Source: a virus
Lineage: Duplodnaviria > Caudoviricetes
Length of the DNA stretch: 61,563 bases
Reading direction: 5' to 3' (one strand)
IMG/VR virus record: IMGVR_UViG_3300044678_000872
Span: 1-61,563 of that record
In this document: piece by piece, positions 1,221 to 21,086 of the stretch
Numbering within the stretch: position 1 is the first letter of the stretch
Layout of the letters: each line of letters opens with the position of its first letter
Translations under genes and position numbers: made by a program
The notes under the pieces: generated by a model
Databases searched by the model: none
Told to the model about the DNA's origin: nothing
Seen by the model: the letters and a program-made list of their open reading frames with translations, nothing else

Positions 1221-2111
1221 ATGGAAATATTAAATGAAAGACAATATAAGAAAGTTACTTCGCTTACCGCGACTTTTACAGTTTCTCCAAGTGGAACATA
1301 CGTACTAGATTATGAAGACCTTTATACAGGAGAATCATTTTCAGCCTCTGCATCAACAATTTCTGGAGCAGTGTCATTTACTTTAGCACCAAAATATTTA
1401 GACTACACAGGATCCCTAGCAGCCTCAGTTAAAGACTCAAGTGGTAACACTGTCATTATGACAAACATAGAAATCATTAGACCATATTGCAACCTAGATT
1501 CTGTTGCCTCAGCATTATCAATTACTGACGGTAGTGAAATAGGATATGAAAGATTAGCAAGATACATTATAGACTCTCAAACACAAGGCTTTCCATTTGC
1601 TAGAAAAGAAAAAGATATTATAGGCATGGGAATGGACTATCTTCCTATTGATGAAAAAATTTATAAGATATACAAGGTGTATAAAAATGAAGAATTAGTT
1701 TATGACTCAAACCTTAGTGCTAGTGTAAATCTTGTAACATACTCAATTACTAAAGACGGATCTTCAATTACAAATGTAGAAAACGAATCTGATGCTGAAA
1801 ACAAAGTTAATTACAAACCAGTATGGCACGAACGATATTTAGACCCTGCTTTTGCAGACGGATCAGAGTATAGGGTAGATGCCGACTATGGCTGGAAAGT
1901 AGTTCCACAAGATATTCAAGAGGCATGTGAGATGCTGGTACAAGATATCAAGTCTGATAACTTAAGATATATAAATAGATATATAGAGTCATTTGATAAT
2001 GAAGACTTTAAAATTAAATTTGCTAAAAATCCTACCGCTGGTACAGGAAACATGTTTGTTGATAAAATTTTGGAGAAGTATAGAAACAGGCTTCGTATCG
2101 GGGTTTTGTAA
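1221..2111 (+). CDS. Head-tail adaptor/connector protein
   Basis: Follows the capsid gene; C-terminal YGW..VPQDIQEACEMLV and VDKILEKY resemble gp6/gp15-type adaptors. Confidence 0.7.
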   Translation: MEILNERQYKKVTSLTATFTVSPSGTYVLDYEDLYTGESFSASASTISGAVSFTLAPKYLDYTGSLAASVKDSSGNTVIMTNIEIIRPYCNLDSVASALSITDGSEIGYERLARYIIDSQTQGFPFARKEKDIIGMGMDYLPIDEKIYKIYKVYKNEELVYDSNLSASVNLVTYSITKDGSSITNVENESDAENKVNYKPVWHERYLDPAFADGSEYRVDADYGWKVVPQDIQEACEMLVQDIKSDNLRYINRYIESFDNEDFKIKFAKNPTAGTGNMFVDKILEKYRNRLRIGVL

Positions 2112-2584
2112 TGTTTCTTCCATCATCTACTTTAGACGATATATTGTTTCCAATGACTGCAGATGTATACTATGCTGTAACTAAACAACAAGACTATGGA
2201 AACATCTCAAAAACTTGGGTATTTGATAGAAAGATAGATTGTTCAATAATAAGTGAATTATCAACTAGAGGGTTTAATGGAGAACTTAGAACAAAAGGAA
2301 CAGACTTTATTTATGACTCAAATGCTTTTTTAAGAACCAAAGAAGATTTAAGAAAACATACCAATGGAAACTACTACCCTATAACATCTATTTCTATTAC
2401 TAATATCAAAGACCCTTCTGGGAATAATGTTTGGATTAATGGTCAAAATTTAACAAATTCTGCTGCGGTAGTAAATACTAAATATGAAGTAAAAACTATA
2501 GTACCTACATTTGACTATAACCATAACCTAAGACATTTTAGACTTTATATAAGCAAGTCACAGGTTCAGAAGTGGGAGTCATGA
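2111..2584 (+). CDS. Head closure (stopper) protein
   Basis: Gene order, size and beta-rich sequence; coupled to the previous gene (TAATG). Confidence 0.55.
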   Translation: MFLPSSTLDDILFPMTADVYYAVTKQQDYGNISKTWVFDRKIDCSIISELSTRGFNGELRTKGTDFIYDSNAFLRTKEDLRKHTNGNYYPITSISITNIKDPSGNNVWINGQNLTNSAAVVNTKYEVKTIVPTFDYNHNLRHFRLYISKSQVQKWES

Positions 2585-3267
2585 TTACCACTAAAATAAA
2601 CACAAAAAGTTTACTTGCAACAATGAATAGTGTTATTCAATATACTGAAGGATTTACATCAGAGTTAAAAAAGAATGAAGGAAGATTGTCTAAAAAAATT
2701 GCAGAATCTTCTATAGATGTTTTTTATCAATACCTAGATGGCTTAGCAAGAGTTCATCCAGGAATGCTTCATCATGTTTATGAATGGGGTCAAGTTGGAA
2801 ACTCATCAGCAAGATTATTTGAATTAACTTCAACACTTAATGGAAAGAATGCAATAGTCAGTGCTAACTTTTTACAATCTGATTCAACACCACCAAATAG
2901 TGATCAAGAGTTTTATGATAAAGCAACAATTATGGAAGAAGGAATTCCAGTTGTAATTAATCAAGTTGACGCTCAGGCATTGTTTTTTGAAGTAGATGGA
3001 GAAGAGTTTTTTAGAACTGGACCTATTTATATAGCAAACCCTGGCGGTGCAGCGACAAGAGGTTCTTTTGTTAAAGCATTTAATGAATTTTATGGTGTAT
3101 ATTTTAATCAAGTATATTTAGATTCAATTGGATTTTACAGACACTATTCAGATCCTAAAGAATATAGTAAAAAGTTTAGAAGTGCGTCTAAGAGCAGAAA
3201 TGCTAGATCTTTAGGAAAAGACGCTGCACTATCTTGGATTGCTAAAGGTCCTGGAGGAAGAGTATGA
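2581..3267 (+). CDS. Neck/tail completion protein
   Basis: Gene order in the neck module; ATGA overlap at 2581 is the likelier start. Confidence 0.5.
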   Translation: MITTKINTKSLLATMNSVIQYTEGFTSELKKNEGRLSKKIAESSIDVFYQYLDGLARVHPGMLHHVYEWGQVGNSSARLFELTSTLNGKNAIVSANFLQSDSTPPNSDQEFYDKATIMEEGIPVVINQVDAQALFFEVDGEEFFRTGPIYIANPGGAATRGSFVKAFNEFYGVYFNQVYLDSIGFYRHYSDPKEYSKKFRSASKSRNARSLGKDAALSWIAKGPGGRV

Positions 3268-3851
3268 AAATTTATAGACCAGAAAATTTAATTAATGAGT
3301 ATGTGTGGGAACAGTTTAAAACTCAGGCTCCTGCATTTTATAACCTATATCCAAAGACAGTAGGTGGACCAGACTTTATTCCATTTTTTCCAGCGGGTGT
3401 AGGAAATATTCCTCCTGAAGTTATAGATAACGATTTACCATTTATTATCTTTGATAAGTTTACTAAAGTAAGAACAGGTGCTTATAAGTATTTTTATCCT
3501 ATTAAAAGTGAACAGATGAGATATACCATTTATGGTGGATCTTTATCTGGAGATGTTCCAAACGGTGCAAATAGGTATGGTCTCACAATTAATTTAACTA
3601 GTCTTATAACAGCCATACTAGATAGGGAAGACGCAGCAGCATACGATATAAACGAATTTGCGGGCACTCTGAACGACTATAATGACAACTCCTACCCAGA
3701 CCTATTCAAATACAGTTTTCACTGTTTAAATGTGTTTCAATCGGGGTATGCAGAAAGTCAACAAGATGTATCTAATCTAATGGAATATAGACCTTCAAGG
3801 GATTTAATAATAAAGTATGATTATCACTCTAAACAATATAATGAGTCTTAA
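3264..3851 (+). CDS. Tail terminator protein (putative)
   Basis: Immediately precedes the major tail gene; ATGA overlap. Confidence 0.5.
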   Translation: MKIYRPENLINEYVWEQFKTQAPAFYNLYPKTVGGPDFIPFFPAGVGNIPPEVIDNDLPFIIFDKFTKVRTGAYKYFYPIKSEQMRYTIYGGSLSGDVPNGANRYGLTINLTSLITAILDREDAAAYDINEFAGTLNDYNDNSYPDLFKYSFHCLNVFQSGYAESQQDVSNLMEYRPSRDLIIKYDYHSKQYNES

Positions 3852-3919
3852 AACAACGATATAATAGTATTGAGGAAACAGCCCCACTTTTCCTTACAAA
3901 AAGGAGGGTGAAATAAAAT

Positions 3920-4612
3920 ATGGCAAATTTAGGTAATAGCAATCAAATTATCGTAGGTGCCGCTCGTCTGTTCGTGTCAAAAGGAACAGGTGGAAAAGGT
4001 GCTTTAAAGTATTCACAAGGTTCTGGTTCAGCAGCAGTTTACAACTTCTCTGGCTCAGGCAGCGTATCTGGTATTCCTCCATTCGCAAACGGAACACCGT
4101 TTGCAGACACAATGGAAGCAGCAACAGATTACAACAACGTTGGATACACCATGAATGGTTTGGAATTACAATTCCAACCAGACTTTGGTGAAGTTCAAGT
4201 TGATCAATTACTTGACGTAGCAAAACTTTACAAACAAGGTATGCAAGTTAACTTAGCAACAGCATTCGCTGAAGCAACACTTGAAAACCTATTGTTAGCA
4301 GTTGCTGCTCCAAGTTCAGATAAGTATGATGGTGCAACAGAAGATACATTAATTCTAAATTCTGGTGAACTAGGTGCAGTTCCAGTTGAACGAGCAATCG
4401 TTGCAGTTGGTCCAGGATCTGGAGACCCAGATGCAGTAGGTGCATCAGCAGTAGAACGCGTATATGTAGCACACCGTGCACTTTCAATTGAAAGCGTAAC
4501 AGTTTCTGCAAAGCGTGATGAACCATCAATGTTTGAAGTATCATTCCGTCTACTTCCAGCATCAAACGGATCTTACGGTAAAATCGTAGATCGTGTTCGC
4601 GGTTCAGTCTAA
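3920..4612 (+). CDS. Major tail (tube) protein
   Basis: IIVGAARLF, VGYTMNGLELQFQPDFGEVQVDQ, FAEATLENL motifs; strong SD; terminator follows. Confidence 0.85.
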   Translation: MANLGNSNQIIVGAARLFVSKGTGGKGALKYSQGSGSAAVYNFSGSGSVSGIPPFANGTPFADTMEAATDYNNVGYTMNGLELQFQPDFGEVQVDQLLDVAKLYKQGMQVNLATAFAEATLENLLLAVAAPSSDKYDGATEDTLILNSGELGAVPVERAIVAVGPGSGDPDAVGASAVERVYVAHRALSIESVTVSAKRDEPSMFEVSFRLLPASNGSYGKIVDRVRGSV

Positions 4613-4631
4613 CACAACTAAATAAACACTT

Positions 4632-4662: not shown

Positions 4663-4697
4663 GTGCTATAATTTTATATATATCCATAGGAGGATAA

Positions 4698-5033: not shown

Positions 5034-5368
5034 ATCTCGCCGAGATAGAATCTAAAGTATTTCTTCTGGGATTCTGGAAGAATTACGAAGAACTTGAAGA
5101 TTCATTATCTTTACCTGAGTTGATAGAAATAATATCAACAAAAAGAGATGAAGATTATGAAAATAAAAAATTCTTCGCTTCCTTAAAAGGGATAGATTTA
5201 GATAAAAGTTCTAAGTCGTCTCAAGATGCTTGGGAACAAATGAAGGCAAGGGTTTTCAGCAAAGGAAAAACCTCTAATCCTAACGATATAGTAGCACTAC
5301 AAGGTTCTGCTGCAAGGCAAAAAGGCTTTGGAATCGGACAAGGGTTAGACTATGAGGTGATTAGTTAG
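4698..5368 (+). CDS. Tail assembly chaperone, -1 frameshift fusion product (gpGT-like)
   Basis: The -1 frame is open from 4985 to 5368 (PKRTSGGSSWDELDLAEIE...) with no good independent start; XXXYYYZ heptamer in the overlap. Confidence 0.75.
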
Positions 5369-8300
5369 TGGCTGACGTAGCCAAAGGTATTATTGACATT
5401 GAGATCAATACTGGTAATGCCGCTGCCCAATTAAAGGCTTTACAACAACAAATTAATGCTTTTACCCTTTCGGTAAATAAAAACAATTCATTTCAATCAA
5501 ATGCTGCTGCAAAATATACAAGTGAACTAAAAGATTTAATAAACGCAAGCAGATTCTTTACAGCAGAAACAGTAAAGATGAGAACATCTGCTGGTGCTCT
5601 TGATGCTACCTTAAGAAAAGGTCAAGGAACTCTTGGTCAATTCTTTAATGCCAAGTTTAATAGAAACAGTGCTTTATTTGCAGAGACTATGGGTCTTGCA
5701 TCAGAACGTGCAAGAACAATGCAAACTCAATTTATTGCAACTACTGGTGCTTCCAGAGGTATGCAAGAAGCATTGGCTATCAGACCACTTGCAGCATTTA
5801 ACTCACAGTTAACAATCGCTTCTCAAAGATCTCAAATTCTTACATCGATGTTCAAACAAGGAACAACACAATTAATTAATTTTGGTAAAAACGTACAGTG
5901 GGCTGGTCGTCAGTTGATGGTTGGTTTTACATTACCACTAACGGTATTTGGAACTACTGCAGGAAAAACCTTTATGGAATTAGAAAAACAAGCAGTAGCA
6001 TTTAAAAAAGTTTATGGAGATATCTTTACAACTCCAGCAGAATTACAAGGAAACCTTGAATCAGTTATGGCTCTTGGTAGAGAATATACAAAATATGGAA
6101 TTGCAGTTAAAGACACAGTAGGGCTGGCTGCCCAGGCTGCAGCAGCAGGTCGTAGAAATAAAGATTTAACAGATGCTGTAACTCAGGCAACAAGATTAGC
6201 AACTCTTGGTCAAATGAGTCAAAATGAAGCCCTTGATACTACTATTGCTTTACAGAGTGCATTTAGACTTAGCGGTCAAGAACTAGCAGATACAGTTAAC
6301 TTCTTAAACATGGTAGAAAACCAAACAGTTGTTAGTTTACAAGATTTGGCTGCAGCAATTCCGCGTGTTGCTCCAGTTATTCAAGGTTTAGGTGGAGATG
6401 TAAAAGATATGTCAGTATTTCTTGCAGCAATGCAAGAAGGTGGAGTATCAGCAGAACAAGGTGCTAACGCATTAAAGTCAGGTCTTGGATCTTTAATTAA
6501 CCCAACAAAAGCAGCAACCCAAATGCTTGCTGGATTTAACATTAATCTTGATGCTATTATTCAAGCAAATCGTGGTGACTTAATGGGTACAGTTATGGAA
6601 TTTGGAAAAGCATTACAAACATTAGATGAATTTTCAAGACAACAAGTTCTAGAACAAGTATTTGGTAAATTTCAATATGCACGTCTAGGAGCATTATTTG
6701 AGAACATTGTTAGAGATGGATCTCAAGCAAATCAAGTATTACAAACAATGGGCTTTAGTTCTGAACAATTAAGACAAACAGCAGAAAAAGAATTAGGGGT
6801 AATCGAAAATTCTTTTGGTGTTCAATTAATCGCGGCTATTGAAAAATTTAAATTAGCAATTGCACCTATAGGACAACTATTTGTTGAACTTGCTATTCCT
6901 GTTGTAAACTTTATCACTAGCATTGTTGATAAATTTAACAGTCTTCCAGACTTTACAAAGAAATTTATAGCATTTGCAACTATCATTACTGGTCTTGTTA
7001 TTCCTGCTGGAACTATGTTCTTTGGTTTATTAATGAACTTAAGTGGAACTCTTGCAAAACTTTTACAATCTATTGGAATATTTTCTAAAGGATTAATGAA
7101 AGGTGGACTCCTTGGCGGAGTTCAAGCACTGACACAATCAATGAAATACTTATCTCTTGAAGAAATAGATGCTGCTATTGCAGCAAAACAATTAGGTAAT
7201 GCAACAATGTCTTCGAACGATGCTTTTCGACAACAAGTTGCAGCAGCAGAGGGTGCTAGAGTTGCAGTTAAAAATCTTGGAGATACATATCAATATCTGA
7301 TTGCAAGAATGGCAGAGGCTGCTGGATTATCTAAAGTTACTTTTGCAACACCAGGTACTGCATTAAAAACAGCACAAGCCAGATCAAAAAATATTAAAGG
7401 TGCATTTCCAAGAAGATTTGCTACTGGTGGACCAGTTCCAGGAAGTGGAAATCAAGATACAGTCCCAGCAATGCTTACCCCTGGAGAATTTGTTGTAACA
7501 AAAGATGCAACTAAGAGTATAGGTACAAAATTTTTAGAAAGATTAAATATGGGTGGAGTTGCTGGATATAAGAATGGCACTAAAAAAATAGAAAATCAAA
7601 TAAATTTAGAAGCAATGAAAAATGAAGCAGGTGCTACAACATCAACGCAATCTGAAAGACAATCTACATTAGGTGCATCACAAAGAGCACATAATATTGC
7701 AGGACAAACAGCGGTTGCTGGACCTGGCGGCGTATCTACTTCTAGAGGAGTTATACCAGAAGGTTATACTTACCAAAAATTAGCAGATAGAATAATAGAT
7801 ATTGATGCTACATTAAACAATAATTTAAAAGATAAAGGTGTAACTGGAAGACAGTTGTTAAATGATTTTAAAGCAAGAAAAATGTCTGTATTTCAAACTA
7901 TGGATAATCAATTTGTTAATTTCTTTGAGGATGAAAAGATAAGATTACAAACAACAACAAATTTAAACTCAGGTCAAATTGCAAAAAAATTAAGACAGAT
8001 TGAAGCAAATTATACTAAAACTAAAAAACAAATATATAGAAGATATATTAAAACATTTTCAAGATATCCAGATAGAGTATTTACAGACACCGATCTAGGG
8101 AAAGTGTCAAATCAAGTTTATAGGGTTTTTGATAAAAACAGTACATTGAAAAATTTTCACAATGAACTTAAACAGTTTCGTAGTACAAGAATAAGAAAAA
8201 CAGAATTAAAAGAAACCGCTAGATCTGCAGGATTATCTACAAAAGGAACCATACCAGAACTGTTAAATAGAATAGAAGATGATAGAGTTGCAAAAGGTTT

Positions 8301-11300
8301 AGCACCAATGGATTCTAAACTAAAATCAAATATTATAAATAGAGGAACAAATGAACCAGCAAAAGGATCAAAAGAGTCAAGATTGTTTTATGGAGATAAA
8401 AATAAAGGTGGAAGATTTAATAGACGTGAATATGTAAAAACTATAGCAAAAGTACTTGGTAAAAAATTTGCTAAAGGTGGATCTGTTCCATCATTGTTAA
8501 CACCTGGTGAGTTTGTTGTAAATAAAGATGCAGCCGCTGCTAATAGACCATTCCTTGATGCATTAAATGCTGGTCAAGTAAAGAAATTCCAATTTGGAAC
8601 ACCAGCAGCAGAATATGACACAGAGGCTGGTCCAATGACAAGAAGTCAAAGCAGAAAAATGGGAATAAGATCAGTTGGTAATAGAGTACGTGGTGGAGCA
8701 AGTGCTGCATCATTTGGAGGATTTTTAGTTGGAGGAGCATTACAAACAAGTTCTAATGAAGCAGCAAGGTCAATTGGTGGAGTAGTTATTGCAGCATCAA
8801 TGGCACAGCAAGCATTTTCATTGCTTGGTCCAGTGGTAAAAAAGTTAGCAATAAGGTTGCCAATGCTTACAAATCCAGTAGGTTTAGCAATAACAGGATT
8901 TATGGCAACAGCAGGAATTTTAACATACGTTTTTAACAAACAACTTGCAAAGTTAACAGATGCTAGTGCCGCAATGACTAGAGCAATGTATGGTGGATCA
9001 GAAAGTTTAGAAAATTTTGCACAGGCATATGGAAGAAAAACTTTTAGACAACAAGCGATTGAATCAGCAACGTCTGCTGTTGGAGGTCAAACATCTCAAG
9101 AAAGTCAACAATTCTCATCTCAGTTTATGCAACAAGATCAAGGTCAACAATTATTAGAATCAATTAGGAAGATAAGAAAAGAAGGTGGAGATGCCGTACA
9201 AGCACTTAGAAATCAATTATCTCAGGCAGTTGTGTCTGGATTAATAACTACTGAAGAGGCTAAGACAATAGCAAAAGATGTTGGCGTAGCATTAAATGAT
9301 CAAAATTTAGCAGTTAATGCTGTAGGACAAATTGTTGAGTTGTTAGGTCCAAATGGAGAAAAGTTAGATAATAACACAATGCAAATTATTGCTGAAATTA
9401 GTCCAAAATTTAACTTTGCAGAAATGCGAGCACAAGCAGAAAAAGCATATCAAGAAGATACTGGATTTTTTGCAAAACTATTTGGAAGAAAAGAAGACCA
9501 AACTCAGGCAGTACTTACTGCAGATGTAGTGCAAGGATTAGCAATAACTACTGAAAATTTTGCAAATGCAACAGCAAAAGCAAGAGATCAATATATAAAT
9601 GGACAAATTGATCTTAAAAAATATAACGAAGAAATAGCAGCATATGCAGTAGCGGTGGGAACAGAGTCTACTAAGGCTACTCAAATATTTGCTAGAAATA
9701 TTGGGATTTCTGTTAATGATATAGAAAAGTTTGCTAAAGAAGTAGAAGTTAAAGGCTCATATGGTGATAAAGTTTGGACAGAGCCAACAAAAAGAGCAAA
9801 ACAAATACAAGCATTTTTTAAAGAACAAAGAAATGGCATTGACACAATGCTAGAAGGACTTGGAGACAAGACTTCTAATGAACTAATTAATGGAATATTA
9901 AAGTTTTCTGGTGGAGAGGGTCCTAAGTCAGCAGAAATATTTAATCAAATGCTTACTGGAACTTTAAGCCAAGATTTACTTAACCAAATTGTAACGTTTT
10001 TAAATAGTCAAGGGTTAACAGATGCAGCAAATCAATTTAAAAGTAAATTTGCTATTTCAACAAGACCAGCAGGTTTTATAGGACCAGTTGCACCTAACAG
10101 TGTGACCCCAGGAGAAGAACAACCTCCAGAGCCTGCACAAAAATCTAAAATTCAATTATTACAAGAGTCAATTACACAAACAAAAGAGTACACAAAAGCA
10201 ATAGATACTTTAATGAAGAAAGGTTTAACAGCAGAAGCGGCTGCTAATTTAGATGCTGCTACAGCAATTGAAATTGTAAAAACTGGTAGATATAAATTAA
10301 TAAAATCAATTAATGATCAAGTTACTGCACAAGCAGTATTGCAAAATGTTTTAAAGTCAAAAGATGAAAGAAGACAAGATATTCTTGACGCAGAAAATGA
10401 TGCAATAGATAATAATATTAGTTTAATTCAAGATCAAATAAATGCAGTTAATAGATTAAATGAACTTGATCAAAGACAAGTTAGTTTAAGGCAAAAAGGT
10501 TTAGATGAACTTTCAAAGAAAGAAACTGCAGTTAATAAAGTTTACAACGATAGGGTAAGTGCTCTTACTAGAGTTAAAGAAGCCAATGCTCAAGTAACTC
10601 AACAACAACAAGATAGAGTTAATCTTGCTTCAGCATTGACTGGTGGAGATATTGCTGCCGCAGCCCAAGCCGCTGCAACTATGACAGAAAATTTTGCATC
10701 AGGTCAAATAGATCAAGCACAAGCAGAATTAGATCTTCAAAGACAAAGAGAAGTTGAAGCCTTGACGGTATCTGTAAATGGTCAATTATTAACTAGACAA
10801 CAAATAGAATCACAGATTGATGTATTTAATGAAAGAATATATCAAAGAAACTTAGCAACATTACCTTTACAAGATCAAATATTTGGACAAGAACAAAGAA
10901 AATTAGCAATACAAAGAGAAATTGATAATATTCAATTAAACATAAGACAGAAACAAATACAAGAAGAGCAAAGGGCTGGAAGACTAGTTGGATATTATAA
11001 GTCAATGGCTTGGTGGACTAATCAAAGAGCCAAAGGTACATTTGAAGGAGAACCTCAAGCAACTGGTGGAGTTATACAAAAGAAAGCATTTGGTGGATTT
11101 TTAAAATATACATCTAATGAGCCAGCACCAGGAATGGCAATGGGTGGAAAGATGAAAAAGTATGCAGTTGGAAACATTGTTCCAGGGCTTGGAAATACAG
11201 ATAGGGTTCCAGCATTACTTACACCAGGAGAATTTGTTGTTAGAAAATCAGTAGCCTCAGAAAATATGGATATGTTGAAAGCATTAAATGGGGATGTGTT

Positions 11301-11505: not shown

Positions 11506-12089
11506 TGGCTACATCAACATATTTTCAAAATAGATTTGAATATGCAAGACCACAGGCTATAGCATGGGCTAATTCATACACAATAAGTGGTGGATTATTT
11601 CTTCCAGAAGGTAATACTGAAGGAGAAGACTTTTTAATTTTATCTGATCATAATAGAAGTGATATTAATTTTACAAAACAAAGATTAGAAAACAAACAAA
11701 GAATGATTTCAGGAGCAATGCGTTCATACCACATTGCAGATAAGGTTAACGTATCATGGTCTTGGGAAATGCTTCCATCAAGAGCCTTTAGTGGTGACCC
11801 TGGATTTGATTCCTCTGGACTACAAACATATTCAGCAACTGAATACACAGCAGACGGAGGAGCAGGAGGGGTTGACATAGTTAAATGGTACGAAAATCAC
11901 CCTGGCTCTTTCTTTATGTTTTTAGCATACGATAGATTTGATAGATTTGAAAGTGTTCCATATTCACACTTAGGACAATATAATGAAGTAGTAGAAGTTT
12001 ATTTTTCTGACTTTGATTATTCGGTTATTAAAAGAGGTCCAACAACACATGATTTCTGGAATATATCGGTAGCAGTTGAGGAAGTATAA
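11505..12089 (+). CDS. Distal tail/minor tail protein
   Basis: Directly after the tape measure gene, coupled; 194 aa, beta-rich. Confidence 0.6.
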   Translation: MATSTYFQNRFEYARPQAIAWANSYTISGGLFLPEGNTEGEDFLILSDHNRSDINFTKQRLENKQRMISGAMRSYHIADKVNVSWSWEMLPSRAFSGDPGFDSSGLQTYSATEYTADGGAGGVDIVKWYENHPGSFFMFLAYDRFDRFESVPYSHLGQYNEVVEVYFSDFDYSVIKRGPTTHDFWNISVAVEEV

Positions 12090-15000
12090 TGTTTACAGAT
12101 GAAGACTTATTAGATCATCTCCAAACAGTAAATACCTTACAAATAGAATCACTGGTAACTGCTGAATGGAATCTTAATGATTTGCAAGAAATAAATAACT
12201 ATGGAAATTATAGATATAGACCAAACGATTCTGCATCTCCAATATACAACGCACTTATTTCTTCTTATGATAGTAATGATGAAGGTAATTTTTATTTAGA
12301 TTCTTTAGAGTCAACAGTTATATCAGAATATGCTGTGGATAATAATGATGCATCTTTATTGTTTACTACCCCAGAAGTTGATAGGTCTTTATACTTTTCA
12401 CTAAAAGAATGTTTTCAACCATTTAGACCAAGGTCGGGTATTAATAAAGTATTATTTTTTAATGATAAGTATGTTGATAATATAACTTCAGCAAGAAGAC
12501 CAAGATATTATTTTGCATCTAGATATGATAAATTTAAATACTGGAATTCATATAGAAAAGAACTATATAAAGCAAGTGCTAGTGCAAACTTTATTAGTAA
12601 AGAAAGGGGTATATCAAGTCAATCTGATGTAAATGAAATAGGTTATGAGATTGAAGATACAGTACCATTTATAGTTTATGAGGATGATTTTGCTATTAAT
12701 AGAATAGTTGTTAAAATGCAAACTAACTTAGCAGAGTCATCAAAAGGTTTAGTAAGAAATGTTTTAGATGGCGTAAGTTTAGAAGATCCTTTAGGAGATA
12801 GAACTAAATCAAGCATCCCAAAACGTTGGAATATTCAATATCTAGATCAAAGTGATAACTGGATAAATGCTATATCATTTGACGAGGACAGCACAAGAAG
12901 AGATGGAACTGATGTTGTTAAATGGGATGGGTATACAGAAATTTATTATGGCTTGATTGTGCCAGATGACTATAAAAATAATTTTAATTTAGTAGATAGT
13001 TTAAGTTCAAGTGCATTTTTAGTTAATGGACTTTTAGCAGGAGAGTCATATTTAGTTGGTTCAGACATAAATAATGCTGGAGAACTTTATATTTGGAATG
13101 GATCATCTTGGGATATATCTGTACCAGAGTATGGTTTTTCTTTGGTAGAAGATGATGACACAAAAAGAATTGGAATGGTTAGAACATTAGTTGATCCAGA
13201 ATATTTTGATACTGATGGGGTTAGAACGTATAGGGAAGTAAAGTATATACGAGGTTTGCGGGTAGTGGTAGAAACAATGTATGGACCTAATACTACTTTT
13301 GATTTAATAGAATTATCTCCTAGGCTAAAAGCAGATATATCAAACTATGTAGTATCATTTGAAACAAATAGATCTTTGGCTAAGTCAAATACTGGTTTGC
13401 CAGTGGGTGGACTAGTTGCATCTAATGGTCAAATTAATTTAATGAACTATGATGAAACTTTTAGTGAAAACAATGAAGATAGTCTTATTCAAGGACTATT
13501 AAAGCCAAATGTAAAGTTTGATTTTTATGAAGGAATTTTAGATGTAAATGGATTTGATAAATTTATACCAATTAAAACTTTATACTCAGAAGAGTTTCCT
13601 GTAGTTGTAGGTGGATTATCTGATATATCAGTTTCACTTAGAGATAGTTATTTTAGATTTGAAACAGCGGTAGCACCTTCAATATTATTAAACAATACTA
13701 CACTTACAAAAGCAGTAGCAGTTTTATTAGATAATATTGGGTTTAGTAATTATATATTTAAAAATATAACAACAAAAAATGATCCAGTTATTCCGTATTT
13801 CTTTGTTGAGCCAGATGCTTCAGTTTCAGAAATATTGGAAAGACTTTCTGTCTCAACACAAACAGCAATGTTTTTTGACGAAAACAATGATTTTGTAATA
13901 ATGACAAAAGACTATCTACTGCCAGAAACAGCAGATAGGTCAACTGACTATATTTTATACGGAGAAAGAACAGCAGTATCTAGTGGATCAGTTTTACCAA
14001 ACATTATTAGTGTAGAAGGGGTAGAAACAAAGATTCTTAATAATGGAAAAATTAACTATATTACTAGATATATTCAAAGATCTGCAGCATCATTATCTCA
14101 AGCAACTAAAGTTGATGAAGATAGAACTTACATATATAAACCAGTTTTATTATGGGAAGTTGGAAATGATATAGCAACAAAAACAATTAACGAACAGTCT
14201 AAATCAACTGGATTTGCATTGGGTGCTGTTGCTTTAAATACAACACTTAGTGCTGAGCCGCCACGAGTAGAAAGTAATGTAGTTATAAATAACATTATAG
14301 ACTTAGGAGAAAATGTTTACTGGCTTCCAAGATTTCAAGGGTACATGTATGCAAATGGAGAGATTATTAGATATGACGCTGTTGAATATATAATTCCAGG
14401 TCAAGGAGTAAGTTGGATATCAAATAATCAAGAGTATCAAAAATATTTTTCTACATTACCATTTAATGGAAAAATGTATCCAACTGGAAATGTTAGAATA
14501 TACTCAGAGCCATACTATATTAATTTAACTTCTGCAAGTGTTGTTGGTTTAGATCCAGGAGTAACTTATAAAAACGGAGAAGTAAAAACTCACGGTAGAG
14601 CACAGTTTGGTACAACAATAACAGAGCATAGTTCTGGACTACCTTCATACTGGTCAAACAATAATAATGTTCGTGGTTTAAAAATGTCTTCTAATTATAT
14701 TTTTACTACAACACCAACAGATTTAATTAGTAAGCCACAAAAAGCAAGCACAGCCTTAACTATTGGTATGGATAATACAACAGCATTATCGTCAACAAGA
14801 ACTGGTATTATTGCAAACTTTATGCGTCAATCTATACCATCTGATGACGTAATTAAAGATTATAAAACAACTTCATCTGGAACAATTCAATCATCAGCAT
14901 TTGTATTTACAGGTCCAACTCCAATGCCAACAGCAATAGATAAAAGAGATTTTGTTACATATGTTTATAAAGAACTAGAGTCAGACTTTAAGCACTTTGG

Positions 15001-16456
15001 AACTAGGATGAGAATTATTGGAAAATCAAAATCTGGAGATAAAGTTTTAACACCTCAAAATGCTACTGACTACTACACGGTAGAACCTCTAATTGCAAAC
15101 GATACTCCAAAAATTGAAGGTGGCTCTGGAGGTATATCATTTCTTTTAAATCCAGATAAAGGTCAAGGATATTTTTATGAAATAATATCTTTAACTGGAG
15201 ATAACTTAGAAAGATACACAACAGCAGATGGAACTACAGGTCAAACAACAAGTGTTGTTCACAACATTATATTTTATAAAGTACAGCCAGGAACAGTAAA
15301 CGGACAAACAGTAGCAGTTCCTTATAAACTGTGGGGTGGTCTTGGAAAAATATTAGTAGATGAGGGAAGATTTGTTGGAAATGACAGGGTAGTAAATCAA
15401 CAAAATCCAACAGTATATGATTTATCTGCTGAATACGAAGACATTGGAACAACTAGAAGATTTTATTTATATTTAAACAATACTTTAATATCTATAGTAG
15501 ACGATACAGATCCTTTACCAATATATAACAATATTGCTTTATTTACTAGAGGATCTTCAAAATGTATGTTTGATAATGTATACTCTTTAAAAAATCTTCA
15601 AAGTAAAGAAAGTAGTGTTTCTGTAGTTAATAGTACATCCAAACCTTTTTCAAATAGAGAGATTCTTTCATCAGATGCATTAAGAACATACGCAATATCT
15701 GGAATAGTTCAATCAACATATTTATCTGGTATTAGTGCAAACAGTGGTCCTAAGTATTCAATATACTATGATGAGTTTGGAACTATATTAAGAGAGTGTG
15801 CATATTTTAATATTAAGTACGATAAAGCATATCCAGCATTTTTAGCATTCTTAGCACCAACATTTAATAGTGAAAGAACGTATACAGCCTCTGGATTTAG
15901 AGCGGGGTCATATGGTGCAGAATTTTTAATTTTTAATAATACAGATAAGGCTATAGTTCTTGATGAAACTTCAGGTAGTTATCTAAGAATTATAGGGGTT
16001 ACATTTACACAAAATACATCAAATGTATTGACAGTAGACGATTACTTTAAAGATTTATCTAATTTCAGTGATCCAGTAATTGTTAACAATGTTATTACTT
16101 CTCCACAGATATCAGACAAAACATATCAAAGTGTTAAAACAAGTAGATCAAAGTATGGAGATAGATCTTTTAGTTTAGAGTCCCCATATATTCAAAGCGA
16201 TGATCAAGCACGAGATATAATGGATTGGATGATTAAAAAAACTATAAGACCAAGAAAGAATGTTTACATTGAAACTTTTGGTACCCCACATTTACAGTTA
16301 GGTGACTTAGTGACAATAGATTATAGATTTCCAGAGCAAAATAATCAAGAAGGAACTTTGTTTGTTGATAAAGATAAAAAATTTGTTATTACAGAAATAT
16401 TTTATTCTAGATCAACTAGTGGTGTAAGAAATAGGTTAAGGATGGTTGAAGCATAA
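12089..16456 (+). CDS. Large tail tip/baseplate hub protein
   Basis: 1455 aa; C-terminal SKYGDRSFSLESPYIQ...GTPHLQLGDLVTI resembles tail hub (Tal/gpJ-like) proteins. Confidence 0.7.
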   Translation: MFTDEDLLDHLQTVNTLQIESLVTAEWNLNDLQEINNYGNYRYRPNDSASPIYNALISSYDSNDEGNFYLDSLESTVISEYAVDNNDASLLFTTPEVDRSLYFSLKECFQPFRPRSGINKVLFFNDKYVDNITSARRPRYYFASRYDKFKYWNSYRKELYKASASANFISKERGISSQSDVNEIGYEIEDTVPFIVYEDDFAINRIVVKMQTNLAESSKGLVRNVLDGVSLEDPLGDRTKSSIPKRWNIQYLDQSDNWINAISFDEDSTRRDGTDVVKWDGYTEIYYGLIVPDDYKNNFNLVDSLSSSAFLVNGLLAGESYLVGSDINNAGELYIWNGSSWDISVPEYGFSLVEDDDTKRIGMVRTLVDPEYFDTDGVRTYREVKYIRGLRVVVETMYGPNTTFDLIELSPRLKADISNYVVSFETNRSLAKSNTGLPVGGLVASNGQINLMNYDETFSENNEDSLIQGLLKPNVKFDFYEGILDVNGFDKFIPIKTLYSEEFPVVVGGLSDISVSLRDSYFRFETAVAPSILLNNTTLTKAVAVLLDNIGFSNYIFKNITTKNDPVIPYFFVEPDASVSEILERLSVSTQTAMFFDENNDFVIMTKDYLLPETADRSTDYILYGERTAVSSGSVLPNIISVEGVETKILNNGKINYITRYIQRSAASLSQATKVDEDRTYIYKPVLLWEVGNDIATKTINEQSKSTGFALGAVALNTTLSAEPPRVESNVVINNIIDLGENVYWLPRFQGYMYANGEIIRYDAVEYIIPGQGVSWISNNQEYQKYFSTLPFNGKMYPTGNVRIYSEPYYINLTSASVVGLDPGVTYKNGEVKTHGRAQFGTTITEHSSGLPSYWSNNNNVRGLKMSSNYIFTTTPTDLISKPQKASTALTIGMDNTTALSSTRTGIIANFMRQSIPSDDVIKDYKTTSSGTIQSSAFVFTGPTPMPTAIDKRDFVTYVYKELESDFKHFGTRMRIIGKSKSGDKVLTPQNATDYYTVEPLIANDTPKIEGGSGGISFLLNPDKGQGYFYEIISLTGDNLERYTTADGTTGQTTSVVHNIIFYKVQPGTVNGQTVAVPYKLWGGLGKILVDEGRFVGNDRVVNQQNPTVYDLSAEYEDIGTTRRFYLYLNNTLISIVDDTDPLPIYNNIALFTRGSSKCMFDNVYSLKNLQSKESSVSVVNSTSKPFSNREILSSDALRTYAISGIVQSTYLSGISANSGPKYSIYYDEFGTILRECAYFNIKYDKAYPAFLAFLAPTFNSERTYTASGFRAGSYGAEFLIFNNTDKAIVLDETSGSYLRIIGVTFTQNTSNVLTVDDYFKDLSNFSDPVIVNNVITSPQISDKTYQSVKTSRSKYGDRSFSLESPYIQSDDQARDIMDWMIKKTIRPRKNVYIETFGTPHLQLGDLVTIDYRFPEQNNQEGTLFVDKDKKFVITEIFYSRSTSGVRNRLRMVEA

Positions 16457-17193: not shown

Positions 17194-17194
17194 T

Positions 17195-18346
17195 TTGATT
17201 ACAACAGACGGAAAACAGATAATTGCTAAGTATCTTTTAGATCAAGCACCAGCATTTGCAACCCATATTGCTGCTGGATGTGGAACTAAGCCACTGCTTA
17301 GTGGAGATGAGGCAAACATATCTGCCTCAGTTCAATCATTAGATTTTGAATTATTCAGAGAGCCAATTCTTGCAAAAGGTTTTGTAAATGAAGGTGGAGT
17401 AGAAAAAATAGTTTTTAAGGCTCAAATGCCAACTACCCAAAGATATTTAATTTCAGAGGTAGGTCTTTATCCAGCAGGAACAAATGTTATCGCTGGAAAA
17501 TATGATAGTAGATTGTTAGTTACATTTACATCAGCAGAACCTTGGTCATATGTAACAAATGGATCAGCATCTGCTATAGAGTTTGAACCAAATGGAGTTT
17601 TAAATTTAACAAGTGGAAGTGCAATAACTAACGACATTACCACAACAACAAAGGGTCAATTCATAAATTCTGATTCTACAATATTTAATACATCTTCAAG
17701 ATCATCTAGATTAGAGCAGCCAAGACTGCTTAGTCGTGCATTAATGGTTAGTGGGAGTAGTTCATTTTTAACACTAGACCCAGGGGACCCAACTAAACTT
17801 ATAGCAACTAGTAGTGCTTCTTATATAGAAAATAGTAGTATAAATTTTGATTTTAGTCAAAACATTACTACAGATAAATTAAAACTAGCATTTAGTTTAT
17901 TAAGTAGAACTGCTTCAGTAGACACCGCACCAGACTCTGTTAGAATTCTTTTAGAGTTTACAAATGGAACAACGTTACCAGGTACCTCACCAAAAGCAAA
18001 GTTAAGTATGATACTTTCATCATCTGACTTTCAGGTAGATGGTAATGCAAATAGGTATGTAGTAGTAACTAAATCTTTATCTAATTTTGAAAGAGATACA
18101 GATTTTACATTTTCAAATATTAATGGAATAAGGATATATACATCTATTTTAGTTGGGGGTGTGCCAACAGATAATTATTTAGTTGCATACGATGGGTTAA
18201 GAATAGACAATGTATCTACAATTAATCCACTATATTCTTTAGTAGGTTATGATGTTATTAAAACAGATAACGGTTTACCAATTTTAAAACAAGAAAATAC
18301 AAATAATTATATAGAGTATAGATTTGGTATTGGAGTGACGTCTTAA
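17195..18346 (+). CDS. Minor tail/baseplate protein
   Basis: MITTDGKQIIAKYLL...ISEVGLY N-terminus resembles tail-fibre collar/baseplate proteins. Confidence 0.6.
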   Translation: MITTDGKQIIAKYLLDQAPAFATHIAAGCGTKPLLSGDEANISASVQSLDFELFREPILAKGFVNEGGVEKIVFKAQMPTTQRYLISEVGLYPAGTNVIAGKYDSRLLVTFTSAEPWSYVTNGSASAIEFEPNGVLNLTSGSAITNDITTTTKGQFINSDSTIFNTSSRSSRLEQPRLLSRALMVSGSSSFLTLDPGDPTKLIATSSASYIENSSINFDFSQNITTDKLKLAFSLLSRTASVDTAPDSVRILLEFTNGTTLPGTSPKAKLSMILSSSDFQVDGNANRYVVVTKSLSNFERDTDFTFSNINGIRIYTSILVGGVPTDNYLVAYDGLRIDNVSTINPLYSLVGYDVIKTDNGLPILKQENTNNYIEYRFGIGVTS

Positions 18347-18816
18347 TGGCAAAGGTTATTATTCCTTTAGAAGAATTGCCACCACCAAATCGTGACGGAA
18401 CCCATGTTGTAAGATTTAGAATAATTACTGACGGTAGAGCAAGCATTTCAGAGTGGTCTAAACTTTTTAGAATGCAAAGTATTGGTCAGATAAGTGATGG
18501 TCTAGTATCCGCTAACTTAACAGTATTAAAAGTAGGTGGTCCATATGAAGTAAGATGGACACCGAGCATTGAAACTTTAGCATCAACTTCTGCATCAGCA
18601 AGTGTCAATAGTTATGATATATTTGTAGATGAAAATGATGGGAATGGATTAAAATATTACTCTAGAGTAAATACAAACTCAGTAACTGTATATAGTGATA
18701 CAACAACTAGCATTAGAGTATATGGTCAGTTACCAACACATCCAACTCCACCAATTACATCTCTTGCATTAAAAGAAACATTTGGAGTTTTTGATACAGG
18801 GATGATTAGTTTATGA
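18346..18816 (+). CDS. Minor tail protein
   Basis: Coupled within the tail module; beta-rich. Confidence 0.45.
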   Translation: MAKVIIPLEELPPPNRDGTHVVRFRIITDGRASISEWSKLFRMQSIGQISDGLVSANLTVLKVGGPYEVRWTPSIETLASTSASASVNSYDIFVDENDGNGLKYYSRVNTNSVTVYSDTTTSIRVYGQLPTHPTPPITSLALKETFGVFDTGMISL

Positions 18817-21086
18817 GTGGATCCTATCCAAAAGTATTCGATACATCAACAAATCAATGGACAAATCTTCTTGATGAAAATTTTACAATAGATGCTATTG
18901 GTGGTATTACATCAGCAAGTCCTCAAGCAGATGATATTTTTAGATATGTTTCAGCATCTGGTGAATACATAAATACACCACTTGTTGCTGTTTTAGAAGG
19001 AAAGGATATATCAATAAATACTATTAATGCTGGTAGTGGATCGGTAGTCGGTAGTTTAATAATGGGAAGTGGGTCCGTATCTGGAAACTTATCTGTAGGA
19101 AGTACTTTAACAGTTGGTGGAGTATTAATTAGTGGCGGAGGAGGCTCTGGAAGTGTTAGCAATGAACAAATTCAAGACGGAGCAGCACCCTTATTTAATC
19201 ACGCATTTCATACTAACATAACAGCAACTTATGATGACGCAAATAACAGAGTTTTACTTTCAACTTCAGCAAGCCCAACAACAGAAAATATTCAAGATGT
19301 TGTTGCTCCATTATTAAACCATGCTTTTCATACTAACGTAACAGCAACTTACGATGACGCAAATAACAGAGTTTTACTTAATTCAACTGCAGCAAATACA
19401 ACAGAACAGATTCAAGACGCTGCAGCATTATTATTAGATCACGCGTTTCATACAAGAGTAACTGCAGTATATGACGATGTAAACAATAGGGTACTATTAA
19501 CATCTAGTGCATCAGCAACTATATCATCAGAAGACATTCAAGACGCAACATCACCTTTATTTGATCACGCTTTTCACACCAACATAACAGCAACCTATGA
19601 TGATGCAAACAATAGAATTTTACTAGCAGCAAGCCTACCATCTGGAACAACTGGACAAACTAATTTTTATGACGTTGTAAGAGATTATGCAGTTGTTGCT
19701 GGAGAAGCAAATTCAACAACTAAAATTCAAAATGCTTTAAATGCAGCAAGAGACGCGGGTAGTGGAATAGTTTACATTCCAGCAGGAACTTATAATTTAC
19801 AAAGTACTTTAAGAATATACACTGGAACAACACTATACTTAACCCCTAAAACAGTAATGTTTAGACAGTTTGCAGATACAGCAATGCTTGTTAATGGTGA
19901 CTCAGGTGCAAGTTATTCTGGATATTCTGGTCAAAGCAATATAAGGATTATTGGTGGTATTTGGGAATCAAGAGGACAGGCTTATCCAATTGATCCAGCC
20001 ATGGGTATTAGTATTGGTCATGCAACAGATGTAATTATTCAAGATTTAACTATATCAAATATTGGTGGATACCATGCTATTGAAATTAACTCTAGTAAAA
20101 ATGTTAGAATACAAAATTGTAGATTTGTTGGATATGTTAATACAGGAAGTCGTGGATATTCAGAAGCAATTCAGATTGATTTAGCAAAAAGTTCAGGAGT
20201 TTTTGGTGCATTTGGTTCATATGATAATACTCCTTGTGAAGATGTTATTATTCAAGGATGTTATTTTGGAGCATCTGGGACTGCTGGAACTACAGCGTGG
20301 GCAACTGGTATAGGAACACATAGTTATACAGCAACTTATTATCATAAATATTGTAAATTTATTGATAACACATTTGAAGGATTAACTGAATATGCTATTA
20401 GAACATTCAACATGTATAGTGATTTGCTCATTAGAGGAAATACAATTAAAAATTGTTTTGGTGGAATAGCAATAGGACCAGACGCTGGTGGAACTGAAGT
20501 TTCTCCTGGCATAACAGTAAACTATGCTGAGCCAGACGGTCCAGATATGCTTTTGTATGCAGATGGTCATACATCTTATAACATTACAATTGCAGACAAT
20601 ATTATTGACAATAGTGGAACTACAGGAACAAATGGTATATGGGTAATAGATGCAGAAAATGTGAATATAACAAATAATACGATTAAAGGTATAACTAGAT
20701 CTGGAAGTAATTTAGCAGACGGCATTCTTTTTGTTGGGGTAAAAAATGGAATAATATCTAATAATTTATTACAAGATATAGGAGACGATGGAATAGATCT
20801 TAGAGCAAGTTCTTTAAATATTCTGGTATCTAATAATGTTACTAGAAACGTATCTAAAACCACAAATAATACTTTTCGTCATATATACCTTAGTGAATCA
20901 ACTAGTAATTGTTCTATAATTGGAAATAGAGGGTATAGAAGCAGTGGAAATATAGCACTTAATGGACTTCATTTTACAGGTACTACAAGTGTTATAAAGT
21001 TTTTTGGAAATTTCTTTGGATCTTCTGCAACAAATGCAGTAAGTAATGCATCCACTGGATCAAGCGATTTAGCCACTAATGGCTAA
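18813..21086 (+). CDS. Tail spike/receptor-binding protein with right-handed beta-helix (pectate-lyase-like)
   Basis: IQNALNAARDAGSGIVYIPAGTY cap followed by many NIxIxNNxI repeats; four N-terminal tandem repeats. Confidence 0.85.
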   Translation: MSGSYPKVFDTSTNQWTNLLDENFTIDAIGGITSASPQADDIFRYVSASGEYINTPLVAVLEGKDISINTINAGSGSVVGSLIMGSGSVSGNLSVGSTLTVGGVLISGGGGSGSVSNEQIQDGAAPLFNHAFHTNITATYDDANNRVLLSTSASPTTENIQDVVAPLLNHAFHTNVTATYDDANNRVLLNSTAANTTEQIQDAAALLLDHAFHTRVTAVYDDVNNRVLLTSSASATISSEDIQDATSPLFDHAFHTNITATYDDANNRILLAASLPSGTTGQTNFYDVVRDYAVVAGEANSTTKIQNALNAARDAGSGIVYIPAGTYNLQSTLRIYTGTTLYLTPKTVMFRQFADTAMLVNGDSGASYSGYSGQSNIRIIGGIWESRGQAYPIDPAMGISIGHATDVIIQDLTISNIGGYHAIEINSSKNVRIQNCRFVGYVNTGSRGYSEAIQIDLAKSSGVFGAFGSYDNTPCEDVIIQGCYFGASGTAGTTAWATGIGTHSYTATYYHKYCKFIDNTFEGLTEYAIRTFNMYSDLLIRGNTIKNCFGGIAIGPDAGGTEVSPGITVNYAEPDGPDMLLYADGHTSYNITIADNIIDNSGTTGTNGIWVIDAENVNITNNTIKGITRSGSNLADGILFVGVKNGIISNNLLQDIGDDGIDLRASSLNILVSNNVTRNVSKTTNNTFRHIYLSESTSNCSIIGNRGYRSSGNIALNGLHFTGTTSVIKFFGNFFGSSATNAVSNASTGSSDLATNG
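19164..19626 (+). repeat. Four in-frame tandem repeats (about 40-43 aa period) in the tail spike
   Basis: Unit ExIQDxxxxL(F/L)(N/D)HAFHTx(I/V)TAxYDDxNNR(V/I)LL, four copies. Confidence 0.9.

Follow-up and report, generated by a model that had tools for sequence, protein, structure and literature searches.

Some mycobacteriophages glycosylate their virion proteins with glycosyltransferases (GTs) of their own, as described for Che8, Corndog and Myrna, where the targets are capsid and tail-tube subunits (PMC12363180, PMC13313380); the passages of these two papers on virion glycosylation name no acceptor motif. A tail protein of a mycobacteriophage is also methylated by a host enzyme, according to the abstract of PMC13445384. 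Here we describe a stretch of viral DNA of 61,563 bases, the whole of IMG/VR record IMGVR_UViG_3300044678_000872 with linear ends (CheckV completeness estimate 57%), called the window below. An earlier note on this DNA had pointed to the tripeptides Ser-Ala-Ser (SAS) and Ser-Gly-Ser (SGS) in the neck and tail proteins, and took them for a genome-specific glycosylation sequon paired with a glycan island at positions 45393 to 49970. We find that the excess of both tripeptides is real, lies at the protein level and in the external virion proteins, and extends through a clade of 24 or more lineages that do not have the island in common. A role of S-[A/G]-S as an acceptor motif for serine modification, probably O-glycosylation, is put forward tentatively.

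Like the phages Che8, Corndog and Myrna, the window phage is an actinophage whose GTs, recognized here by predicted fold, are encoded away from the structural genes. Unlike in those phages, the capsid of the window carries no candidate site, and the motif is found in the neck, distal tail, spike and fibres, with 3 SGS in the tail tube; the structural proteins of Che8 lack a tripeptide excess like that of the window, and the window GTs match no Pfam GT model. The methylated mycobacteriophage tail protein offers a parallel in that a tail protein of an actinophage needs modification by a non-phage enzyme, the difference from the present clade being that the modification is methylation and that the abstract reports no excess of an acceptor motif (PMC13445384). 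The window has a GC content of ~33% and carries nearly all genes on the plus strand, in the order capsid, neck, Ig-domain tail tube, 2,045-residue tape measure, and a distal-tail module ending in a beta-helix tailspike. Its nearest cultured relatives are Streptomyces siphophages of ~126-133 kb with identical gene order, a capsid that is ~40% identical and a minor tail protein (12089..16456 in the window) that is ~25% identical, and megablast found no match to the tail region among cultured phages. These relatives, together with a WhiB gene, identify the window as an actinophage of unusually low GC. Streptomyces phage Wakanda (Stanwilliamsviridae) matches it in the gene order of head, neck, tail and replication genes; unlike the window, phages of the Wakanda type are of high GC and ~127-133 kb, and have no SAS/SGS excess and no PF00535 match.

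The counts were made on 75 open reading frames (ORFs) hand-picked from a mechanical ORF list, so that the starts are mechanical. The approximately 16 SAS that the earlier note had counted by eye in six neck and tail proteins are exactly 16, in 3,278 amino acids (aa) and against 2.05 expected by composition; all 13 sequence contexts it quoted are found, the only one it left out being RSASKS in the protein at 2572-3267. Its SGS examples are likewise present, with GSGSAA and SGSGSVSG in the tail tube (3920-4612) and GSGSV three times in the spike. None of 5000 shuffles reaches 16 SAS in the six proteins, whether residues are permuted across entire proteins (mean 2.03) or inside blocks of 30 aa (2.33) or 15 aa (3.02), so the enrichment persists after both global and local correction for composition, and composition at either scale is rejected as its source. 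As the six proteins had been chosen after the fact, an a-priori structural set was also used, comprising all ORFs between 1221 and 21086 other than that of the tape measure (4,492 aa). Here SAS occurs 16 times against 2.72 expected and ranks first of all tripeptides (Poisson p = 3.4e-8), while SGS occurs 12 times against 3.14 (p = 1.1e-4, rank 6). The serines of SAS are encoded by a mixture of TCN and AGY codons and the alanines by GCA, GCT, GCC and GCG, which places the signal at the protein level and rules out a DNA-level word. With two SASAS overlaps and one internal repeat of ~40 aa in the spike, the number of independent SAS loci is ~13 and not 16. The window ORFs contain no long Ser dipeptide tracts.

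The external structural proteins and the two structural negatives are as follows.

131-1120: capsid (phrog_1623); 0 SAS, 0 SGS, 0 S-x-S
1221-2111 (+): head-tail adaptor-like neck protein, 296 aa (phrog_442, E 5.7e-6); 3 SAS, 0.17 expected
2572-3267 (+): neck protein, 231 aa (phrog_11539), syntenic in position with Wakanda neck genes; 1 SAS (RSASKS)
3920-4612 (+): major tail (tube) protein with Ig-like domain, 230 aa (phrog_2175), syntenic with the Wakanda major tail protein; 0 SAS, 3 SGS
5368-11505 (+): tape measure protein, 2,045 aa (PF10145 PhageMin_Tail, E 5.9e-25), internal and used as negative control; 0 SAS, 0 SGS
12089-16456 (+): large minor tail protein, 1,455 aa (phrog_10359, E 2.8e-58); 3 SAS, 2 SGS
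17195-18346 (+): tail protein, 383 aa (phrog_9983), the marker for the clade searches; 3 SAS, 2 SGS
18346-18816 (+): small distal tail protein, 156 aa, no family found; 2 overlapping SAS (SASAS)
18813-21086 (+): tailspike, 757 aa (phrog_2234, E 2e-87; PF13229 Beta_helix); 4 SAS, 5 SGS
21107-21529 (+): last ORF of the distal-tail module, 140 aa, conserved in position across the clade; 1 SGS

The right-handed beta-helix of the tailspike is C-terminal, and the N-terminal 280 aa hold all 4 SAS and 4 of the 5 SGS. Upstream of the beta-helix, residues ~120-280 form four tandem repeats of ~40 residues with a conserved HAFHT core, and the ends of these repeats carry 2 of the 4 spike SAS. The negatives named by the earlier note hold for the tape measure and for DnaE (1,093 aa), both with 0 SAS; the terminase it also named has no counterpart, as no window ORF matched a terminase family, and the packaging genes of relatives sit upstream of the capsid gene, which is beyond this window. 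Elsewhere SAS occurs singly, as had been claimed: 3 in the 12,078 aa outside 1221-21086 (3.14 expected), one each in 25249-25899, FtsZ (44464-45393) and DUF932 (59289-60296).

The same excess is found in relatives. Searches of viral contigs with the 383-aa tail protein gave 10 loci, and its profile extended these to the best 80 of 157 relatives; synteny is strict from the tape measure through DnaE in all loci. In four orthologous proteins the close relatives (60-80% identity) have 5-6 SAS against 1.4-1.5 expected and 7-9 SGS against ~1.5, and the window, with 12 SAS against 1.72 expected, has the highest SAS count among them. The 48 loci with a complete distal-tail module contain 314 SAS against 80.6 expected and 183 SGS against 83.3; after dereplication to 24 lineages (65,959 aa), the counts are 167 against 40.3 for SAS, an observed/expected ratio (O/E) of 4.15, and 101 against 41.8 for SGS (O/E 2.42). 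The excess thus characterizes an entire clade, referred to as clade A, with 24 or more distinct lineages. All three positions of the motif are specific. In the centre of S-x-S, Ala has an O/E of 4.1 and Gly of 2.4, with other residues at or below 1.6 apart from one conserved S-W-S site; before A-S, Ser stands at 4.1 and Thr at 1.7; and after S-A, Ser stands at 4.1 and Thr at 2.0. The context of 205 dereplicated SAS sites shows Val or Ala at +1 in 48%, Ser or Thr at +2, and a 2.5-fold enrichment of Tyr at +3, and is weak beyond.

Three longer clade A genomes allow structural and non-structural proteins to be compared, namely G006 (complete, 101.7 kb, with direct terminal repeats), G007 (87% complete) and G008 (76% complete). 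For neck and tail homologs the SAS O/E is 3.2, 5.5 and 6.7, respectively, compared with 1.3, 1.0 and 1.0 for the non-structural homologs, 0.6, 0.5 and 0 for the tape measure, and 0 for the capsid. Therefore the comparison of tripeptide ratios that the earlier note had called for places the SAS excess in the outer virion proteins, in the window and in three other genomes of the clade. There are further SAS-rich ORFs in a fibre-gene region upstream of the head genes, a region which in a related record holds Gly_rich_2, Mtd_N and collagen-repeat proteins. Two fibre ORFs of G007, at 89517-90386 (-) and 90433-91920 (-) (L103:9517-10386 and L103:10433-11920), contain 13 and 14 SAS within 12-14 tandem 10-residue repeats around SAS. 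The N-terminus of one of them is presumably of the kind that Pfam calls Mtd_N, and the C-terminal domain of these fibres is distantly related to minor tail proteins of Gordonia phages. The Gordonia phage relative was set aside as a relative of the repeat fibre, since it matches the C-terminal domain only and has no SAS array. The fibres of G006 follow the same A-S-x-x-Y-L-T scaffold as those of G007, with S, N, D or A before A-S.

A sister clade lacks the trait. The three most distant loci of the first clade search have no SAS excess, and a profile search started from them (best 80 of 203 relatives) gave 38 loci with a complete distal-tail module, each with 0-2 SAS, where 0.8-1.6 are expected, and with a comparable Ser content. 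After dereplication, the 14 lineages of this clade B (36,610 aa) have 17 SAS against 17.1 expected and 19 SGS against 18.9, although their tail module is syntenic with that of clade A, 38-43% identical to it, and contains 8-10% Ser. A shift from Ser to Thr of a shared [ST]-A-[ST] motif was considered and ruled out (O/E of TAT 1.45, TGT 1.59 and SAT 0.75). In a maximum-likelihood tree of the 1,455-aa tail protein (39 rows, namely the window with 24 lineages of clade A and 14 of clade B, and a midpoint root only), the two clades split on one branch with a Shimodaira-Hasegawa-like approximate likelihood ratio test (SH-aLRT) support of 100. Within clade A, basal lineages such as L043 and L047 show the weakest excess. 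No protein category of the complete clade B genomes G031 and G032 (~105 kb, with direct terminal repeats) shows a SAS excess; among the neck and tail homologs, 1 SAS stands against 1.55 expected and 0 against 1.50. Wakanda shows no excess either (SAS 4 against 3.13, SGS 5 against 3.03). With Wakanda, Che8 and 14 clade B lineages lacking the excess, SAS as a generic property of tails or fibres is ruled out, and the occurrence of homologs of the same fold with and without the motif argues against a pattern imposed purely by the fold. As separate observations on these controls, the capsid and major tail proteins of Che8 (L197, 5051-5872 and 7613-8422) both end in Gly-Ser, and G031 encodes a PF11397 GT, 2OG-Fe(II) oxygenase and Asp/Arg hydroxylase domains, a collagen-repeat protein, a sulfotransferase and an APS kinase (L184:11573-19361, L186:349-7471), which may be a sign that the sister clade hydroxylates, glycosylates or sulfates collagen-like fibres.

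Individual SAS sites are not kept in place. Two relatives keep 3 of 12 and 4 of 12 window SAS, compared with a fraction of 0.52-0.53 for all tripeptides, and more distant relatives keep 2 of 9 and 3 of 9, compared with 30-35%. The positional conservation of individual sites between the window and its relatives is therefore not above background, which does not support the interpretation of the earlier note. SAS sites exchange with SGS, SPS, SAA, AAS, TAS, NAS and VAN. Across clade A, the 1,455-aa protein has SAS at 15 distinct alignment positions and the 383-aa protein at 11, most of them in only 1-10 of 25 sequences, and across clade B each protein has it at 2. The SAS columns are less conserved than the average column (0.52 against 0.70 in the 1,455-aa protein, 0.57 against 0.65 in the 383-aa protein), and those of clade A are often gaps in clade B. 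This distribution fits SAS sites that lie in variable, probably exposed segments and are repeatedly gained and lost.

The island consists of the following genes.

45393-46058 (+): GT-A-fold protein of the DUF8361 family, 221 aa, directly downstream of FtsZ; AF2 model with a predicted local distance difference test (pLDDT) score of 95.7
46052-46699 (+): tandem paralog of the preceding protein, 215 aa; 38-42% identity
46688-47464 (-): xylose-isomerase-like TIM-barrel protein, 258 aa (PF01261, E 5.5e-13)
47430-48203 (-): short nucleotide-sugar epimerase/reductase-like protein of the short-chain dehydrogenase/reductase (SDR) type, 257 aa (PF01370, E 2.5e-8; phrog_540)
48190-49254 (-): FAD-dependent oxidoreductase, 354 aa (PF01266 DAO, E 4.8e-9)
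49254-49970 (-): GT-A-fold protein of an unnamed viral family, 238 aa; AF2 model with pLDDT 90

The sugar-modifying enzymes that had been reported here are recovered as an isomerase-like TIM barrel, an SDR epimerase/reductase-like protein and an FAD oxidoreductase. The three GT-like proteins stand at the level of a GT-A fold, two by their own models and the third as a paralog, and none of them matches a GT model of Pfam, PHROG or NCBIfam. Foldseek matches of the model for 45393-46058 are GT-A transferases and nucleotidyltransferases. Compared with heparosan synthase 2, this model gives VIA Z 13.4 and a root-mean-square deviation of 3.5 over 178 aligned residues; heparosan synthase, hyaluronan synthase, ArnC and TarP fall between Z 13.4 and 12, with GlmU-type nucleotidyltransferases at Z 12.4. 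For 49254-49970 the top Foldseek matches are RmlT, TarP and TarS (E 2e-5, probability 1.00, template modelling (TM) score ~0.4). The fold matches of the island GTs are weak throughout (TM ~0.4-0.58), and the acceptor of these enzymes is not readable from their modelled fold. Homolog searches gathered 87 DUF8361 proteins, of which 40 were aligned, and 20 proteins of the 49254 type, of which 19 were aligned. E76, H98, K100, R113 and E184 are invariant in the former family, and H102-D103-T104 and E176-D177 in the 19 homologs of the latter, residues among which an acidic DxD-type motif for binding metal and nucleotide sugar may lie. Homologs of 45393-46058 carry only PF27674 (DUF8361), a family without mention in the papers searched. 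ESM Atlas gave weak GT leads for the three family-less ORFs, a six-frame search of the window for PF00535 found nothing, and Protein Data Bank (PDB) searches with the GT candidates, as single sequences and as profiles, returned nothing useful. Among the Pfam matches listed for window ORFs (25 of 32 families in one scan) there is no GT family in the other 59 ORFs, and no GT-B, Glycos_transf_1 or GT4. PDB sequence searches gave no match for the FAD and TIM-barrel enzymes and a weak one for the SDR protein, to the RmlD-type dTDP-4-dehydrorhamnose reductase 1vl0 (E 0.001).

The whole island, including the 49254-type GT, is conserved in two close relatives (L014 and L015). A search for the island epimerase in the records of five relatives was empty and uninformative, as those contigs stop before the island position. 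The gene just upstream is a phage FtsZ (44464-45393, +; Pfam Tubulin and FtsZ_C) with homologs in G006 and G007 of clade A and none in the two complete clade B genomes. The slot from FtsZ downstream to ~49970 is a variable hotspot of glycan genes, holding two DUF8361 GT-A genes and a minus-strand cassette of four genes in the window. In G006 and G007 a GT2 of 215 aa comes first, and unrelated ORFs of 457, 199, 153 and 265 aa come after it.

Taken together, the dependence on residue order, the specificity of three positions, the restriction to exterior proteins and to one clade, and the scatter of sites, with turnover, across many unrelated proteins point to recognition by something, more than to a packing requirement, and an acceptor site for serine modification would be the simplest case. 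We suggest, as the best but still tentative reading, which falls somewhat short of an even chance, that S-[A/G]-S is an acceptor motif for serine modification of exposed virion proteins, probably O-glycosylation, by a phage or a host enzyme. The short recognition motif would be S-[A/G]-S, mainly SAS and often followed by Val or Ala, and one clade of ~100-kb, low-GC actinophages with WhiB and FtsZ would accumulate it in variable surface segments of the exposed proteins, that is, neck, tail tube, distal tail, spike and side fibres. If the motif is modified at all, the modification would be O-linked to one or both of its serines, with glycosylation as the leading candidate, and selection would act on the number of sites per protein and not on fixed positions, so that sites would be gained and lost while their density is kept. 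The modifying enzyme may come from the variable GT set of the phages or from the host, and would not be specifically one from the island at 45393-49970. Glycosylation is favoured as the nature of the modification because every sufficiently complete genome of the clade that was examined encodes small GT-A-fold transferases and nucleotide-sugar enzymes, and because actinophages are known to glycosylate their virions, as the parts of PMC12363180 and PMC13313380 cited above describe. A host-encoded enzyme, which we consider equally possible, would explain why the motif does not covary with GTs.

The turnover of sites has a counterpart outside the phages. Glycan shields of enveloped animal viruses are built on N-linked N-x-S/T sites by the host secretory-pathway machinery, and the number of sites is kept while individual ones are gained and lost in variable surface regions. 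The present clade resembles them in keeping the number of motifs while sites turn over in variable regions, and differs in that its motif is Ser-based, with a postulated reader, and that the phage is assembled in the cytoplasm. In the serine-rich repeat glycoproteins of Gram-positive cocci, Ser-Ala-Ser-type units are O-glycosylation acceptors for the GtfA/GtfB O-GlcNAc transferases; these proteins have hundreds of dipeptide-type repeats, and need the GT-B-fold GtfA/B and an accessory Sec system. The G007 fibres are similar in holding long tandem arrays with SAS, unlike most SAS sites of the clade, which are isolated.

Several observations weigh against a modified S-[A/G]-S. The capsid is the main target in the known mycobacteriophage systems and has no SAS, SGS or any S-x-S here, and Che8, with its proven virion glycosylation, has no tripeptide footprint (SAS 5 against 3.03 expected). 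Apart from the SGS of the tail tube, the candidate motif falls mainly on low-copy proteins of neck, tail and fibres, and a protein that lacks it may still be glycosylated. Non-structural proteins show no avoidance of SAS (O/E ~1), which would perhaps be expected under a promiscuous cytoplasmic enzyme. The surface exposure of SAS is read from the variability of the alignments, and the best structural matches of the window GTs are transferases for polysaccharides and teichoic acid and not protein O-GTs. The difference between clades A and B is a single evolutionary event, so that any trait differing between them fits equally well.

The GT repertoire adds to these points. The 49254-type GT occurs in 0 of the 25 related records searched, and DUF8361, recovered from 4 of 25 records of clade A and from none of 8 of clade B, is missing from G007 (87% complete, with a SAS O/E of 5.5), also at both positions where other genomes carry it. 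The ORFs of G006 and G007 give no BLASTP match (E 1e-5) to the three sugar-type enzymes of the window, and the 49254-type GT is missing there too; they carry other GTs, namely GT2, PF11397 and one DUF8361. Among the matches listed for these two genomes (25 of 46 families) are the 215-aa GT2 directly after FtsZ, a second GT2 in G007, a PF11397 GT in G006, Polysacc_synt_2 dehydratases, a DegT aminotransferase and an FkbM methyltransferase. Between the FtsZ-adjacent GT2 and DUF8361, hhalign detects no relationship (probability 0.3). On the SAS-poor side, G031 encodes a PF11397 GT (E 5e-56) and a GT1-like Glyco_trans_1_2 (E 1e-21), with two epimerases/dehydratases, an FkbM methyltransferase, a sulfotransferase with APS kinase and 2OG-Fe(II) oxygenases among the matches listed (25 of 28 families), and G032 encodes a GT2. 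Since clade B genomes thus have GTs and sugar enzymes, the presence of GTs does not predict the motif. Covariation was considered for DUF8361, the 49254-type GT, GT2 and PF11397, and holds for none of them; as to the covariation with GT repertoire that the earlier note had proposed as a check, no GT family tracks the motif, which is a weak test, given that the motif arose once and that most contigs are fragments. A comparison of gene content between clade A and both complete clade B genomes yielded no enzyme specific to clade A, only FtsZ and a few small ORFs.

These results bear on several other explanations. That the excess is a statistical or compositional artefact of Ser-rich proteins, low complexity or post hoc selection could draw on the choice of the six proteins after the motif had been seen, on the overlaps and the repeat that raise ~13 loci to 16, and on the window being extreme among its close relatives; against the outcome of the shuffles and of the a-priori set, the replication in three genomes and 24 lineages, and the null result in 14 sister lineages, Wakanda and Che8, it has practically no chance of being correct. 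A somewhat unlikely but serious explanation is that SAS and SGS are an unmodified by-product of a clade A style of Ser/Ala/Gly turns and of A-S-x-x-Y-L-T fibre repeats, which duplication and mosaic exchange would have carried from one tail or fibre gene to another. The tandem SAS repeats of the G007 fibres and the G006 scaffold with its variable residue before A-S would be of this kind, as would the form SAS-x-x-[Y/F]-[I/L/N] at 3 of 14 window SAS loci, the clade-wide preferences at +1 and +3, and the 2 of 4 spike SAS within a tandem repeat; many SAS sites are also insertions relative to clade B, and the trait arose once. Most sites are nevertheless not copies of one module, since the 205 contexts share little past +1 to +3, and they arise at many independent positions in unrelated protein families. 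Shuffling in 15-aa blocks predicts just 3.0 SAS, the same folds exist in clade B and Wakanda without the motif, and a strict Ser on both sides is unexpected for a generic turn of small residues.

Two further explanations concern the island itself. The exact claim of the earlier note, a genome-specific sequon read by the GTs at 45393-49970, could be seen in an island that is conserved in L014 and L015 and offers three GT-A-fold proteins with three sugar-type enzymes, and in the 12 SAS of the window compared with 5-6 in close relatives (four orthologous proteins). We consider it highly doubtful, as the excess is common to at least 24 lineages and the island is not: G006 and G007, which do not have this island, keep the excess (SAS O/E 3.2 and 5.5) without the 49254-type GT or matches to the sugar-type enzymes, and the FtsZ-adjacent slot holds unrelated cassettes in different lineages. 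Alternatively, the island may have nothing to do with the virion and act on, for example, polymers of the host cell envelope, the SAS excess having a separate cause, and for this we see nearly an even chance. The matches of 49254-49970 to RmlT, TarP and TarS and of 45393-46058 to heparosan synthase, hyaluronan synthase, ArnC and TarP agree with an envelope target, and so do a GT content that does not track the motif and a cassette that is inserted on the minus strand of a plus-strand genome and that lineages exchange in the manner of an accessory module. These same fold matches are weak and silent on the acceptor, and the three GT-fold proteins are short (215-238 aa), a size at which a soluble GT-A may just as well have proteins as substrates; the Pfam matches listed for the window include no enzymes of hydroxymethyl-pyrimidine synthesis or other DNA hypermodification.

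Should S-[A/G]-S be a glycosylation acceptor, it would differ from the known phage systems in that its sequon is readable and is spread over tail and fibre proteins, where those systems have a few sites on capsid and tail tube. Glycosylated phage proteins could then be predicted from sequence, metagenomes could be scanned for the trait, and the swapping of GT cassettes could be read as diversification of the glycan on a constant protein scaffold. In its fullest form, Ser-[Ala/Gly]-Ser would be the O-glycosylation sequon with which a freshwater-type actinophage clade decorates its neck, tail tube, tail tip, spikes and side fibres, with density selected while positions turn over and with the glycan diversified by swaps of GT/sugar cassettes beside FtsZ. 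Such a clade would be the phage equivalent of glycan shields that evolve, and its sequon could be read from the sequence; this scenario is rather improbable in our judgement. If the motif is unmodified, an unusual, lineage-specific and order-dependent selection of a tripeptide across many unrelated exterior proteins would still need another explanation. The contrast of clades A and B, with the same tail architecture and the motif in only one of them, makes the question directly testable, although the hosts are uncultured.

Besides the genes discussed above, the window encodes DnaB, primase, DnaE, RecA, SSB, WhiB, FtsZ, Hsp20, thioredoxin, AdoMet decarboxylase and DUF932. Broadly similar freshwater actinophages with a WhiB gene have been described, in papers where neither "glycosyl" nor "FtsZ" occurs (PMC6802176, PMC10914622). 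The WhiB-family transcription factor (38152-38433, +; PF02467, E 2e-13) is found here in a phage of 33% GC with high-GC Streptomyces phages as nearest cultured relatives, which points to a low-GC actinobacterial host. Several accessory genes are unusual for a siphophage (50063-50491, 44058-44462 and others), comprising Hsp20, a staphylococcal-nuclease homolog, thioredoxin, S-adenosylmethionine decarboxylase and DUF932. A non-structural protein of 455 aa (40046-41413, +), with no family match, has a long Thr-Pro low-complexity linker at residues 154-240 with 13 TPT; outside the structural region no tripeptides are more over-represented than TPT and PTP.

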